Below are positions 3,001 through 42,000 of a stretch of 64,000 nt of DNA, piece by piece; position 1 is the stretch's first letter, and every line of letters starts with the position of its first letter. The stretch comes from Burkholderiales bacterium. Lineage in GTDB: Bacteria; Pseudomonadota; Gammaproteobacteria; Burkholderiales; Eutrophovitaceae. The stretch spans positions 4,114 through 68,113 of the forward strand of contig JBBDIL010000021.1 of NCBI GenBank assembly GCA_040880425.1. The letters run 5' to 3'. The position numbers were made by a program.

Positions 3001-6000
3001 GACATCATGCCAGCGTGAGTTTCCGCCGCACCAAGCTGCTGCGCCGCGTGTTGTGCCGCGAACTCTGGGATGTTTTAGTTCCGGCCGCCCGCGCTGCGGG
3101 CTTAACCTGCTGCGCAGGTTAGCCTTCACTGAAACGACTTCATCTGCCTGCTTCGCAGGCTGTTCGATCATAGATCGAACAGTGCGTCGATCTTCGCCGC
3201 ACAGATGAAGTCGTTTTCCGATATTCCCTTGATGGCGTGGGTCATGTAGGAGACGGTGCACTTGTTGTAGCCGAGCTCGATGTCCGGGTGATGATCTTCG
3301 CGGTGGGAAATCCACGCGGTGGCGTTTACGAACGCGGTGGTCTGATAGTAGTTCTTGAAATCGTAGGTCTTGCGGATCATCCCGTCCTTGTACGCCCAGC
3401 CCTGCAGGCCCTTGAGCATGCGGCCGATCTCGACCTCCGTCATCGGCGCCACGCCGCCTTCGCAGGGTTTGCATTTCTTCCGTACCAGTCCTTCAGAAAT
3501 TTCGCTCATGATCGACTCCTGGGTTCAAGAATTAACCGCACAGGCGCGGAGACGCAGAGAAAACGCAGAGAAGAATGGAAGAGAAGACTACCCACGGTAT
3601 GCAGGGACATGCATCAAGATGAGTGGTCACCGCACCCTTGTGAATCCGGTCAAGCCTGATTAACTCTGCGTCATCTCTGTGCCTTCGCGCCTCCGCGGTT
3701 AAAGGTTTTCTCACGCCCTGGCCAGCTGCTGCAGGCGTTCGATACGCGCCGCGGCGGGCGGATGCGAGTCATACCACGCCGAGTGCAGCGGGTCAGGGGT
3801 GAGAGTCGAAGCGTTGTCCTTGTACAGCTTGACCAGCGCGGTGACCAGGTCCCGGGGCGGTGCGTAGCTGGCCGCGTACTCGTCGGCCTCGAATTCATGC
3901 TTGCGCGAGTACATCGCCATCAGCGGCTGGATCGGGAACAGGAACACCGGTACCACCATGAAGAACAGTGCCAGCGCCATGGCGTCGGTTGCCGGATAGG
4001 CGACATTCAGTCCCATGTAGAACCAGGCCTGATCCTTGACCGCACCGAGAATCCACAGCAGCACCAGGCTGACGGCAAAGGTCCAGGCCATGCGCTTGAA
4101 TACGTGGCGCCGGCGAAAATGGCCAAGCTCGTGCGCGAGCACTGCTTCGATCTCCGGAATTTCCAGCCGGTCGAGCAAGGTATCGAAGAAGACGATGCGC
4201 TTGGACTTGCCGAAACCGGTGAAGTACGCGTTGCCGTGGCTGCTGCGTTTGCTGCCGTCCATGACAAACAGGCCGTTCGAGGTGAAACCGCAGCGCTCGA
4301 TCAGTTTTTCAATGCGTGACTTCATTTCGCCGTCCGCCATCGGCGAGAACTTGTTGAACAGCGGGGCGATGAAGGTCGGGTAGATCATCAGCACCAGCGA
4401 GTTGAAACCCACCCACAGCAGCCAGACGTAAAGCCACCACAATGCGCCCATCTGGCCCATCAGCCAGAGCACCGCGAGCACCAGCGGCAACCCGAGCATT
4501 GCGCCGATCACTGCGTGCTTCGCAAGATCGGTGAAATACATTCCGAGTGTCATTTTGTTGAACCCGTAGCGGGTTTCGATTACGAATGTACGATACAGGC
4601 CGAATGGCATTTCCAGCAGTGAAGTGACGGCCACCAGCAGCGCTATGAACGCGGTGCCGCGCAGAATGTCTCCAGCGAAGAACCCGGCAGCCAGGTCGTC
4701 CAGCAGCTGCAACCCCCCGCCGAAGGTAAAAGCGAGCAGCACCACGGCGTCGAAGGCGACCGCCCATGAGGCGAGGCGGGTCTTGGCCGAACTATAGTCC
4801 GCGGCCTTCTGATGTGCTTCCAGATCGATCTCGGTCGAGAATGCGTTGGGCACGCGGCTTCGGTTCGTCTGGATGTAACGGACGTGACGCGCCGCGAGCC
4901 ACAATCGGGTTGCGGTCGCGAGCACCAGAGCCACGATGAAAACCACTGAAAAACTGTTCATTTCAACAATCCGGTTGGGACAGGCGGGTCACGTGTGACA
5001 GAATAACGCCCGGAAAATTCAAGAAAAATCGCACATTATTATGGCACAGGACCCTGACAACCTGATCTGGATCGACATGGAGATGAGCGGTCTGAACCCG
5101 GATACGGACCGCATTCTCGAAGTGGCGATCGTGATCACGGCACCAGATCTGGCAACCGTGGCCGAAGCACCGGTGCTGGTGGTGCATCAGCCGGATGAGG
5201 TGCTTGCGGGCATGGACGCGTGGAATACGTCGACGCACGGGAAATCCGGCCTGACGGACAAGGTGAAGAACTCGCGCCTGGGCGAAGCGGAGGCGGAGAC
5301 GCAGATGCTCGCCTTTCTGCAAGCGCATGTGCCGCCGGGCGCTTCACCGATGTGCGGGAATTCCATCTGCCAGGACCGGCGCTTTCTTGCGCGATGGATG
5401 CCGGCGCTCGAGCGATACTTCCATTATCGCAATCTGGATGTTTCCACGCTGAAGGAACTTGCCAAGCGCTGGAAACCCGAGATCGCTGCCGGCCTGACCA
5501 AGCACGGCAAGCATGAAGCGCTCGCCGACATTTACGAATCGATCGAGGAGATGAAGTACTACCGGGACAATTTTCTGAAACTGTGAAAGGCACCGACCGC
5601 CGGTCGTCACGCAAAGGCGTTCAACGCAGAGGTCGCAGAGACAAACCTCTTCGGACAATAGAATTTCCGCCGGACCTGCTTCGCGCCCTCTCTTTTGTTC
5701 CGCTGCGTACTCCGCGATGAGGCCTTTCGCGGTAGCCGATCTCCGGCCTTGTTCGCTCCAGACGCTATTCGAGCGTGATCTCGCCGTCGAAGTCGACATC
5801 CAGCCCGATCGCCGGGATGGTGAGCTTCATCTTCGCCGGCAGCCGCTCGCTTCCTTTCAGTTTGCCGTCGGCGAGAGCCCTGGATACCGCCTGCTCGATC
5901 TCGCGCTGGGAGCCGACACCGGTGAGCTTGAGAAACTTGCGGATGCTCATGTTGAAATTTTCTTCGTTCATGGATTTCCTCTCCTTGTCCTGACGATTCT

Positions 6001-39000: not shown

Positions 39001-42000
39001 GGCCTCGCCGCCTGCCTGCTGGTGCTGCAGTACGACATCCACCCGGCAATCGGGCTGTCGTTCGGACCGATCACCTTCCTGATCTGCGTGCTTGGCGGAC
39101 TGGGCAACCTGGTCGGCGGCTTCATCGCGGCGTTCATCTTCGCGCAGTTCATTTCGGTGGGCGGCTTCTTCTTCCATATCGAGTGGGGCTATGTGGCCGC
39201 CTTCCTGTTCTTCATCGCTTTCATGTTCTGGCGGCCGCAGGGCCTGCTGGGAGGCAAGTCGTGACCCGCGCGCTGCCCTGGATCGGGGTCGCGGTGCTGG
39301 CGCTGGTGCCGCTCGGAGGCATGGGTAATTACCCGCTGCACCTGATGATCATGTGCCTGCTGTGGGCATTCATCTACACCGGCTGGGCGCTGATGGGCCG
39401 GCTTGGCATGACCAGCCTCGGGCACGGCGCATTCCTCGCGATCGGCGCCTACGGCGTGGTGATGCTGTGGAATCATTTCGCGCTGTCGCCCTGGTTCGGC
39501 ATTCCGGTTGCGCTCGCAGTTGCCGCGGCGGTGGCATGCGTTATCGGCTATCCGTGTTTTCGGCTGAAGATCGTCGGCCACTATTTCGCGCTGGTGACGC
39601 TGGCGCTCGGCGAAGTGGTTCGCATGATCGTCATCGCACTGCGCGATCAGACCGGCGGCTCGCTCGGCACGACGCCGGAAAGCGCGCTCGCCGAAACCGC
39701 ATGGTCGCTCACCGCGCTGCAGTTCTCGTCCAGGCTGGTGTGGTTCTACATCATCCTCGCCGTTTGGTTCATCGGTCTTTGGGTCTGGACCCGCGTCGAC
39801 CGCTCGATGGCCCGGCTCGCACTGGAGGCGATCAGCCAGGAAGAAGATGCGGCCGCATCGGTTGGCATGAACGTCACCCGGTTGAAGCTGATGGTGACGG
39901 TGATTTCGGCCATGATGACCTGTCTCGGTGGCGCGCTATACGCCCAATACCAGCTCTACGTGAATCCGGAAACGGTGTCCGGCATCGCCATCAGCCTGCA
40001 GATCGTGTTCGGCGCGATCGTCGGCGGCATGTTCGTGCGACTCGGCCCGACCGTCGGCGCGGTATTTACCCTGCTGCTGGCCGAAAGCCTGCGCCTCACC
40101 TTCGGCCACGACATCCACGGCCTCGACACCACGATCTACGGGTTGATGCTGGTGCTGTTCATCATCTTCATGCCCAAGGGCATCCTGGGCGGCATCCTCG
40201 CGGCGTGGCAGAAGTACCGCGCAAGCCCTCGCTCAGTTCCGGCATAAGAGAACAGCGAAACACGAAGGCACGAAGACACGAAGACACGAAGAAGGTTAAA
40301 ACCTCCTTCACGGATTCCTTTGCGTTCTTGGCGTTCCTTTGCGGTCTTTGCGTTGAGTTTCTCTTTTTTGGGGTTCTTCGTGCCTTCGTGTTTCGCTTCT
40401 GTCTTGAAATTCCCTGGGAACTCAGCCGTTGAGCAGCTTTTCGCTCTGGACGCGGCGCAGATCCATTTCGTACTCCAGCTCTTTGATCGGCGGCCGGCAG
40501 TAGTGCCAGGTCAGCCCCGCGCCGTTGCCGGTGCGCGGCAAGATCGTGTCTTCGATCAGTGGATGGATGTCGTGCACGGTGTAGATCTGCACTGCACTCG
40601 CTTCGCTCCATGACGCACCGAGGCCCTGCAGCCGGTCGTTCATCCGTTCCAGGACGAAGCGCGCCTTCGCCTTCATCCCCGCTGCCGAAACGTCGCCGCG
40701 CGCGACGATGTCCTGCGGAAATTTCCCGCCTTCAGGCCACTCGCCGCTGCCGGACACCACGAACGTCGGCGCCGCGCCGGCTGCCGGCACGCTATAGCTG
40801 AACGCGTAGAAACAAGGTTCCGCCGACGGATCGATTTCAGGTGCCACGTTCGACCGCGCCACCGGGTTCACCCCGTCGCGGAACAGCCCCCAGTCCTTCA
40901 GCACGTCGACATACCCCTCGTTAAAGGATTTGAACCCCTGCGGGCTGAAGGGCTCCGGCGAACGCAACTCGCATGCGCAGAATGCGGTTCGCGGCCTTCC
41001 GATGGCCTGCAGATGTGCTTCGATCGCCGCGAATCCCATCGCCACCGGCATCGGCCGTACGAACCGCACCCGCTCGATTGCAAACCCGGCGACCGCCCTG
41101 ACGCCCTGCGAATAGGGAAATCCGCCCTTTAGAAAAGAAAAGCCGCCGTCTGGAAATGTGATGAGTTCAGGCATTGGACCTAGTTACCATATTAATATGG
41201 TATATATCGATCCGATTACCTATTCCAGAACAATTGCGGTTTGAGTCTTATGCTTCGCTGCGATGCGCAAGTAGGTGAGAAACGGAGTGAACTGCTTCAC
41301 AGACGCGGACGGATCGATCGAGCAAACCCAATCAGAACGCGTTCATCGAACGCTTCAACCGGACCTTCCGCGAGGAGGTGCTCGTGCGGCTCGAAGACGT
41401 CCGGGAAGCCGCCTGGTGGTGGATGATCGAGTACAACGAGCAGCGACCGCACGACTCCCTCGATGGCCTCACCCCCATCGAGTACCGTCAAAAACGCGTC
41501 AGAATTCTACTTTTGCAATGTCTGCTTGACGGGAATCTTAGGTAAGCATCGGACATTTGCAAAGTCATGCCGCTGCGTATCAACAGTGCTACGTTGTCTC
41601 CATCGTAGTAATTGCCACCAACAAATTTGCTAGCGTAAATCAAGCAATTCCGCGCAATGCTTAAAGCGCTATCAAATACATTTGATTCTTTTGGCATTCC
41701 AAGAGCATTCTATTGGCGCCTTGAATAATCCGCAGGCAAAGTGCGGTCAAGCATAGTTCGTAGTGAAATTCTTCGAACAGGGGCATGAAAATGTTTCGGC
41801 CAAAAAATAAGATCAGGATCGTCCTTTTGTTCTTATTTGGCTCAATTGCTTCGGGCCCTGCATGGAGCCAAGACCAGTCCTTCACTAGGATTCTGGAGGA
41901 GCGCAGGCTGAAACTTAAAGAACAGGAAAGTCGTCGGCTTACGATTATTCGCAATCTCGAGTTCAGTGCGCCAATACCTCCACAATTTTGCATCACGCCT

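Follow-up and report, generated by a model that had tools for sequence, protein, structure and literature searches.

Palindromic repeats in the window

The window, that is, the whole stretch of 64,000 nucleotides analysed here, comes from the genome of an uncultured soil bacterium of the Burkholderiales, close to 'Betaproteobacteria bacterium SG8_39', and its intergenic spacers hold palindromes whose arms are built from short tandem units. These palindromes carry no gene and belong to a large, modular family of intergenic elements, and the gene-less family is the non-autonomous counterpart of cassettes in which such arms enclose a GxxExxY gene or a four-helix-bundle gene. The source genome (G000) comprises 3.86 Mb in 36 contigs, with 62.7% G+C and a completeness of 98.7%. 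It was compared, among others, with a congener (G001, 410 contigs, ~15% diverged from G000), a genus of the same family (G003) and a member of the sister family (G030); throughout, C3, C13, C15, C31 and the like are contigs of G000, whereas G001 and so on are compared genomes.

The sites in the window were read directly, and an inverted-repeat search and a TRF tandem-repeat search were added. A preliminary description had listed about 11 copies; nine of these sites are strong, long hairpins with tandem-unit arms, while the two at 5608 and 12610 are only degenerate or marginal. Positions 1-41000 contain 22 arms, against ~0.25 expected by chance.

The first copy (3532..3702) lies between two minus-strand genes and has arms of the CGCRGAG type with the ends TTAAC/CGC...GCG/GTTAA (here and below, a slash in a motif marks a junction); G001 has a copy of the CACGGAGGA type at this site, and in G030 the flanking genes overlap, so that the site is empty. 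The degenerate copy at 5606..5718 has imperfect CGCAAAG and CGCAGAG arms and can be aligned with the G001 spacer; the corresponding spacer of G002 measures 43 nt and holds a plain GC hairpin only. A composite copy follows at 10610..10777, in which outer arms of (CACGGAGGA)x3, 97% complementary in the inverted-repeat search, surround an inner CACGAAGA array and its CTTTGCG partner. As DNA, positions 10605-10782 fold with -53.7 kcal/mol (z = -8.2 relative to shuffles), and the architecture is matched in G001 with outer arms of CGCGGAGG. The marginal copy at 12615..12708 consists of a single CGCGAAG unit in a ~10-bp inverted repeat.

Further along, a nested composite (25963..26117) combines outer CACGGAGGA arms with an inner hairpin of (CGCAAAGRA)x4 and (YCTTCGTG)x2-TTTCGCT, and a short, decayed copy (28124..28206) has arms of the GCGAAA/CACCAAG type (CACCARG). 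In the copy at 31953..32095, AGCGAAA/(CACGAAGR)x3 arms, 37 nt long and 95% complementary in the inverted-repeat search, enclose a (YCCTTTGCG)x3-TTGAG module, and positions 31948-32100 fold as RNA with -80.8 kcal/mol (z = -10.9 relative to shuffles). At 33116..33321, CACGAAGG arms enclose a module of ~95 nt (33135-33219, the X module described below) and a CTTTGCG-TGGAG module. Two copies stand in the liv operon, namely one with AAC/(CACAGAGG)x3 arms in the livK-livG spacer (36567..36727) and, in the livF-livH spacer (38218..38378), an orphan arm of (CGCAAAGG)x3 followed by a CACCAAGA hairpin. The last copy (40246..40405) is placed between convergent genes and combines AGCGAAA/(CACGAAGR)x4 arms with (CTTTGCG)x4-TTGAG as its inner module; its site in G001 is occupied by a copy of the CACCAAG type.

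The scan with the arm pattern found no arm in 40406-64000, in line with the reported absence of copies from the island, but this absence is weak evidence, because only six genes are called there and two giant open reading frames (ORFs) take ~16.6 kb. Three co-directional ORFs, the two giant ones (~2850 and ~2678 aa) included, fill most of the island at 41785-60873. A search of the window against Rfam gave no match at gathering level, and at E <= 1 only sub-threshold miRNA-hairpin noise.

Size of the family, units and covariation of the arms

Genome-wide, an arm was defined by a regular expression demanding at least two tandem units, which misses other unit types, and the chance expectation was taken from an order-3 Markov simulation of the genome. 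By this definition G000 contains 684 arms, against ~23 expected. They fall into 345 clusters, 212 of which are in hairpin order (a purine arm, then a pyrimidine arm), and none of the 345 shows the reverse order, with the pyrimidine arm first, alone. The purine-rich arm is the 5' arm in every copy, which by symmetry is valid for both strands. Since contigs break at the repeats, arm counts in fragmented genomes are underestimates. Contig ends of G000 lie in such repeats (e.g., C11:115-283, C12:95-171, C30:3-173 and C19:19930-19953) and G001 often breaks there, so that the family probably limits the assembly of these metagenome-assembled genomes (MAGs).

Each arm is made of two to five head-to-tail units of CRCNRAG plus 1-2 nt. 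Tandem units of this pattern had been described with a length of 9 bp, but a period of 8 nt is commoner (709 spacings) than one of 9 nt (387). An unbiased scan of G000 for tandem repeats of period 8 or 9 is dominated by CACGAAGR (119), CACGGAGGA (17), CACAGAGG (15) and CACCAAGG (14). The left and right outer arms have a common dominant 7-nt core in 134 of the 212 hairpins, as against 51±5 (at most 74 in 2000 shuffles) when the pairings are shuffled; the covariation of the arms, already noticed in the window, is therefore real.

Ends, inner modules and nesting

The arms are extended outward in three ways, by GTGA (111 ends), TTTC(GCT) (92) or GTTC (56), and these extensions adjoin the GTG of the arm as ..GTG/GTGA, ..GTG/TTTCGCT and ..GTG/GTTC. 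As a side observation, the terminus ..GTG/GTGA(T/G)... resembles an extended Shine-Dalgarno sequence, GGAGGTGA, for instance at 36720-36740 of the window and at C33:32560-32600 (trpC start); by inspection, a GTGA-type terminus stands ~8-12 nt 5' of the start codons of trpC and ileS, with no other evident ribosome-binding site.

The limits of an element can be read from two near-identical copies in opposite orientation, C15:33785 and C15:56819, which are 94.6% identical over 149 nt and whose likeness ends exactly at AC/CACGGAGGA...TCCTCCGTG/GT. No target-site duplication was found at the ends of this pair, nor at the gain of an element between ribF and ileS discussed below. This bears on the proposal that the family is of the REP (repetitive extragenic palindromic) or MITE (miniature inverted-repeat transposable element) kind. 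The copies are palindromic and intergenic, their copy number is high and their distribution recalls that of REPs, bacterial interspersed mosaic elements (BIMEs) and MITEs, so that the proposal stands as regards placement and number. It is nevertheless very improbable that they are REPs or REPINs (REP doublets forming hairpins) mobilised by a RAYT, or MITEs that a resident insertion-sequence transposase moves in trans. In fact, a search of the 98.7% complete genome for Y1/RAYT transposases with PF01797 (Y1_Tnp) gave none at E <= 0.01, while control genomes matched; no GTAG head and no fixed terminal repeat were seen; target duplication is missing even at well-defined ends; and the sequence of the arms varies between copies, unlike the ends bound by a transposase.

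The interiors of the copies, at first believed to be unrelated, often share modules. Many copies of G000 hold an inner (YCCTTTGCG)n-TTGAG module, which in the window is common to 31953, 33116 and 40246. In a 'hybrid' subfamily (~29 copies), CACGAAG units are paired with units of CTTTGCG, and the loop between them, AAATACAAGAAT..., is conserved. Hairpins have also been found within the loops of other hairpins, as in the window at 10610 and 25963. The X module, structured and ~95 nt long, occurs in ~31 copies in G000 (e.g., window 33135-33219, which is C21:37248-37332, and C13:122728-122823). It reads AGCGAAACACACAACACG-CCGCATCGCGG-TTTGTTG...CACGTTTGCGAAGCCAACGTGA... and forms two small stems with compensatory changes among copies; it is joined to a CACGAAG arm in every case and has no Rfam match. 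Furthermore, a GC-rich Y module of ~125 nt gives ~17 hits in G000 that are 93-100% identical (e.g., C3:171825-171951, C13:19941-20066 and C33:38140-38258). The Y module, which does not occur in the window, appears to be inserted within a CACGGAG/GA unit of composite hairpins. In the hairpin at C33:29557-29928 the interior of 316 nt is made of tandem Y modules, and in G001 a Y-like sequence is present at one orthologous site, at another position within the element.

Cassettes that carry a gene

According to the preliminary description, similar arms flank GxxExxY genes in other bacteria, and the search for copies that enclose an ORF has confirmed this for G000 itself. Three genes of the genome are of the GxxExxY type (TIGR04256, PDDEXK_3) and one is a four-helix-bundle gene (TIGR02436/PF05635, 23S_rRNA_IVP), and all four are enclosed by inverted arms of tandem units; of the types of ORF looked for, only RAYT/TnpA-Y1 was missing. 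The three GxxExxY cassettes have arms of the family with CAC/../GTGA termini, and all three point the same way as the adjacent genes. One lies in the gap between valS and a major facilitator superfamily (MFS) gene (C33:27763-28305, CACNAAG arms), another in the ribF-ileS gap (C31:171781-172249, CGCAAAG arms), and the third, with CACGAAGG arms, at C31:14760-15235, where the units are the 10-nt CACGAAGGnn. The four-helix-bundle gene (C19:13488-13802) stands between inverted arms of another unit, (GGACTGAG)n, as a single instance among several hundred copies.

Between arms 0.3-3 kb apart in G000, the only cargo found was the GxxExxY cassettes and the 316-nt interior of Y modules, and a search inside the gene-less copies of G000 gave no GxxExxY remnant in any of them. 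A sequence search of the PDB with a GxxExxY protein returned no match.

At the ribF-ileS site (C31:171760-171815), the cassette has replaced the last codons of ribF, so that the ribF reading frame runs through the left arm (…YFLTAKPQSAQRTS*) and ends within it, its TGA overlapping the ATG of the cargo (ATGA). This overlap suggests that the cargo may be translationally coupled to the host gene.

Gain, loss and replacement among relatives

The sites of the elements were compared in several relatives and, for the livK-livG spacer, in other MAGs. The liv spacers of G030 are empty, with 23 nt between livK and livG and TGAcgATG at livF-livH. At livK-livG, a different copy with CACGAAG arms and the X module is found in G001, and no element in G003; among the other MAGs, one has CACAGAGGA arms (L175), two have other units (L173 and L174; CGTCACY, CGTGAATnn x8) and others, such as L176, are empty. 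In this spacer, the hairpin architecture recurs while the sequence of the unit is free. At livF-livH, the copy of G001 is orthologous, with 80% identity over 186 nt, although its orphan arm is CGCGGAGGA in all units, and G003 has a different CACGAAG copy. Over the liv operon as a whole, G001 carries a different variant at two sites and an orthologous copy at one. A search for contigs encoding LivF gave only one contig 100% identical to that of G000, presumably from the source sample.

The same pattern holds beyond this operon. Of 18 hairpin sites of G000 that were compared, 17 are occupied in G001, mostly by another variant, and the eighteenth (12610) keeps the right arm only (CTTTGCG x2). The composite layout and the linker are often common to the two occupants of a site, and the unit type differs in all units of both arms; for example, CACGGAGGA in G000 is exchanged for CGCGGAGGA in G001, with different termini. 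Moreover, for 12 of the 13 sites that could be scored, the G000 copy is closer to its best paralogue in G000 than to the occupant of the same site in G001 (sign test, p = 0.003), which points to sequence having been copied among G000 sites after the lineages split. The genes flanking the compared sites are only 83-89% identical between G000 and G001, and the junctions are blurred because G001 is fragmented and ~15% diverged.

Sites with cassettes vary likewise. At valS-MFS, four genera share an orthologous GxxExxY cassette, whose gene is broken in G001 and G003. At trpD-trpC, the cassette is intact in G007 and G015, the gene is truncated in G001, and G000 has a gene-less CACAGAG hairpin. The ribF-ileS cassette was found in G000 only and is lacking in four of five relatives, the spacer being of 44-56 nt in G001, G002 and G008. 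Hence the copies are polymorphic among relatives both in presence and in content, and versions with an ORF exist, which sets the family apart from the fixed, gene-less hairpins that the preliminary description had named as the alternative.

Genomic placement and symmetry of the strands

In G000, 134 hairpins stand between co-directional genes, 52 between convergent and 8 between divergent ones, against 2221, 572 and 577 among all spacers, so that divergent promoter gaps are avoided (8/194, p = 5e-8). The first unit begins, in either orientation, at a median of 27 nt past the upstream stop codon, in agreement with the early observation that the copies sit just past stop codons, often inside operons. 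Such a position, together with the 52 copies between convergent genes, would suit intrinsic terminators of the ordinary kind, or stable hairpins of random origin that became fixed where genes end. This reading is hardly credible, however: the arms are 25-45 bp long with loops of 40-200 nt, 134 copies stand between co-directional genes (the liv operon included), the arms are ~30 times as frequent as chance would give, and their units are shared across phyla. A T run of at least four within 12 nt accompanies only 77 of 424 hairpin ends, and for this reason the copies are not ordinary terminators.

A different possibility is that the copies are selected RNA elements, which would serve as sites of processing by RNase III, stabilise 3' ends or modulate translational coupling, and that the covariation of the arms reflects selection on RNA pairing. 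Their location in transcribed spacers, a short way beyond stop codons, and their rarity in divergent promoter gaps are what this explanation would predict, as is the great stability of the predicted stems. In addition, the purine arm is Shine-Dalgarno-like and the pyrimidine arm anti-Shine-Dalgarno-like, the overlap of the ribF stop with the start of the cargo would suit expression from the host transcript, and RNase III cuts the stems of the 23S intervening sequences (IVS), whose cargo is of the same family (PMC4990558). The comparison of the two strands tells another story. Among the 134 co-directional cases, the sense RNA has the more stable fold in 71 and the antisense RNA in 60 (Wilcoxon p = 0.22), and G-U pairs number 638 in sense and 614 in antisense; those inner modules that are asymmetric show both orientations with respect to transcription (X, 11 vs. 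6; hybrid, 7 vs. 6). Furthermore, a common subfamily has a systematic A·C mismatch and a G·U pair in each unit (CACGAAG with CTTTGCG), the operon of G030 works without the element, and the operons of other relatives carry unrelated variants. Selection on the RNA thus seems rather unlikely as the origin of the arms, even if it deserves more credit than terminators or transposase-moved repeats.

The symmetry of folding and of the modules fits palindromes that are made or maintained at the DNA level; there is no sign of pairing selected in the transcript, and the symmetry points to an origin in DNA. The earlier statement that structure is conserved over sequence stands, accordingly, as far as the covariation is concerned, but covariation is no proof of selection on the fold, given that both strands fold equally and that conversion gives the same covariation.

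Distribution across genomes and phyla

One 23-mer of the arm, CACGAAGRCACGAAGRCACGAAG, is present in at least 119 contigs from more than 10 phyla; the matches listed include Acidobacteriota, Planctomycetota, Verrucomicrobiota, Gemmatimonadota, Chloroflexota, Bacteroidota, several proteobacterial classes and others. Among the at least 119 loci fetched by this 23-mer alone, at least five GxxExxY ORFs are directly flanked by CACGAAG arms, extending to other phyla the association seen in G000. At least two of the loci have four-helix genes, one with GGAGACR arms (two genes) and the other with a CACGAAGG arm beside a third gene.

In the closer sample of 31 relatives, all eight PF13366-positive genomes carry arms (16-412), 16 genomes have neither arms nor the gene, and G026 and G027 have 40-64 arms in the absence of a PF13366 gene. 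G026, of the same order, matches neither PF13366 nor PF05635; its 40 arm matches are accompanied by 22 matches to the control (reversed) pattern and consist mostly of CACAGAGA and CACTGAGA units, long one-sided arrays included, and it may hold a different kind of repeat. Kin are not independent in such counts, but a class-wide sample of ~200 families comprises roughly one genome per family. In this sample, at least 10 arms were found in 26 genomes, a strong PF13366 match in 27 and both in 14 (odds ratio 14.4, p = 7e-8). The link between arms and PF13366 is therefore strong but not obligatory. Arm numbers also differ ~8-fold within one genus, from 34 in G003 to 286 in G008.

The recurrence of the architecture with quite different units at one and the same spacer in relatives (CGTCACY, CGTGAATnn, GGACTGAG, GGAGACR) would also be expected if the arms were protein-binding arrays, that is, iterated DNA or RNA sites of 8-9 nt for a multimeric protein such as the GxxExxY nuclease or a toroidal four-helix-bundle protein, the palindrome being secondary. 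The strict periodicity of 8 or 9 nt and the co-occurrence of arms with both gene families speak in its favour. Nonetheless, a single genome holds many unit variants and only three or four candidate binding proteins, and there are arm-rich genomes that have neither gene, so that we regard binding arrays as improbable.

Origin and maintenance of the elements

Taken together, these observations make it somewhat probable, in our judgement, that the palindromes are non-autonomous repeats tied to the GxxExxY and four-helix cassettes, and that they have been spread and homogenised by copy-paste or by conversion at the arms. The copies would arise and stay alike at the DNA level, regardless of orientation, through recombination or gene conversion between the arms of different copies, with the arms serving as sites of homology or recognition, through conversion between the two arms of one copy, and through occasional fresh insertions behind genes. 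Recombination and conversion at the arms would account for covariation in the absence of selection on the fold, for the exchange of contents at occupied sites, for nested and mosaic elements and for the lack of a target duplication. We infer that the copies themselves are selfish or near-neutral DNA. As they lie in transcribed spacers, hairpins of -50 to -80 kcal/mol must form in mRNA, and, by analogy with the stems of the 23S IVS cut by RNase III, these probably act secondarily as sites of processing or stability.

A wider reading, possible but clearly more tentative, is that the arms serve as portable modules for recombination or recognition in a class of mobile cassettes that has yet to be described and is present in more than 10 phyla. 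The GxxExxY and four-helix-bundle genes and their gene-less derivatives would then be exchanged from one occupied intergenic site to another, and also from genome to genome, through cutting or conversion directed by the arms. Exchange directed by the arms would leave no target duplication upon insertion and would homogenise the copies of each genome.

Several points weigh against repeats that are tied to these cassettes and spread at their arms. No enzyme has been tied to their movement, and the GxxExxY and four-helix genes may be passengers rather than drivers; a passenger role fits as well as a driving one, because the genes decay at old sites and because there are arm-rich genomes that lack them. 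Two of the cassette sites are old and have been passed on vertically, and their genes are in decay in G001 and G003; identity among the three GxxExxY proteins of G000 is only 45-52%, so that these are not recent duplicates. In the class sample, 12 arm-rich genomes are without PF13366; of five such genomes, three carry a four-helix gene, and the complete genomes G046 and G128, with ~100-119 arms, carry neither. As to the comparison of sites, a filled and an empty junction at high identity were unavailable, and neutral DNA is near saturation between G000 and G001, because of which replacement and fast concerted change in place are indistinguishable. Equal folding of both strands is also compatible with a role in RNA, since every co-transcribed copy must fold. 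Finally, the gene calls (3406 genes, 89% coverage) come from our own crude codon-usage caller and are approximate.

Relation to known systems

The closest object described so far is the ORF-bearing IVS of the 23S rRNA. In Coxiella and Leptospira, a small ORF of the TIGR02436 family is framed by terminal inverted repeats, which pair into a long stem, as in one of the elements described here, and in Coxiella three tandem heptamers stand beside the ORF (PMC4990558). Gene-less and decaying versions exist in both systems, a past as a mobile element has been proposed for the IVS, and RNase III cuts the Coxiella stems enclosing the four-helix ORF (PMC4990558). A stem enclosing an ORF of the S23p/four-helix type occurs likewise in G000, at C19:13488-13802, in one of the several hundred copies. 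The two differ in that the IVS is located inside helices of the 23S rRNA and is excised from the RNA by RNase III, whereas the elements of G000 belong to mRNA spacers, and every copy examined is placed between protein genes; there are hundreds of them, most without a gene. Moreover, the elements of G000 are more often associated with GxxExxY genes, and their arms consist wholly of tandem units.

With the REPs, BIMEs and REPINs of Enterobacteria and Pseudomonas, the family has in common hundreds of short palindromes behind genes, with few in promoter gaps, a modular and clustered arrangement, a few gene-carrying copies with the same flanking repeats, and a lineage-specific copy number. Unlike REPs and REPINs, it comes without a RAYT/HUH match (Y1_Tnp search) and without a conserved GTAG head; its arms are tandem 8-9-mers that differ from copy to copy, its termini are GTGA, TTTC or GTTC, and its associated genes encode PD-(D/E)XK-like and four-helix-bundle proteins. 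MITEs (Correia/NEMIS, RUP, Nezha) and BOX elements are similarly non-coding, dispersed, hairpin-forming, co-transcribed and modular (BOX A-B-C), but the present elements differ from MITEs in the lack of a target-site duplication and in arms whose sequence is variable and covarying. In cyanobacteria, short tandemly repeated repetitive (STRR) sequences are intergenic and consist of 7-nt units in tandem, and a genome has several families of such units. They are described as direct tandem arrays, unlike paired inverted arms that enclose a loop or a gene.

Two other kinds of repeat were considered and rejected. CRISPR arrays were discarded as there are no direct repeats separated by spacers, and integron attC sites as the ORF is inside the hairpin and not between hairpins; the GTTRRRY core of attC was not seen by eye, and IntI was not searched for. 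PDDEXK_3 itself was listed as 'unknown', with multiple transfers, by Steczkiewicz et al. (2012). No paper describing the arm-repeat family was found in the literature, subscription journals being outside the coverage of the search.

Significance

If the interpretation given here is correct, a family of repeats that has gone undescribed would account for a visible part of the DNA between genes in many bacteria of soil and water. From a practical perspective, these repeats break MAG assemblies and cause false extensions of ORFs, and they may shape the processing of operon mRNA. The family would also provide a first genomic context, and substrates that can be tested, for two orphan gene families, the GxxExxY/PDDEXK_3 proteins and the four-helix proteins of the 23S-IVS type, and the old question of the nature of the rRNA intervening sequences would be linked to a much larger population of elements residing in mRNA spacers.

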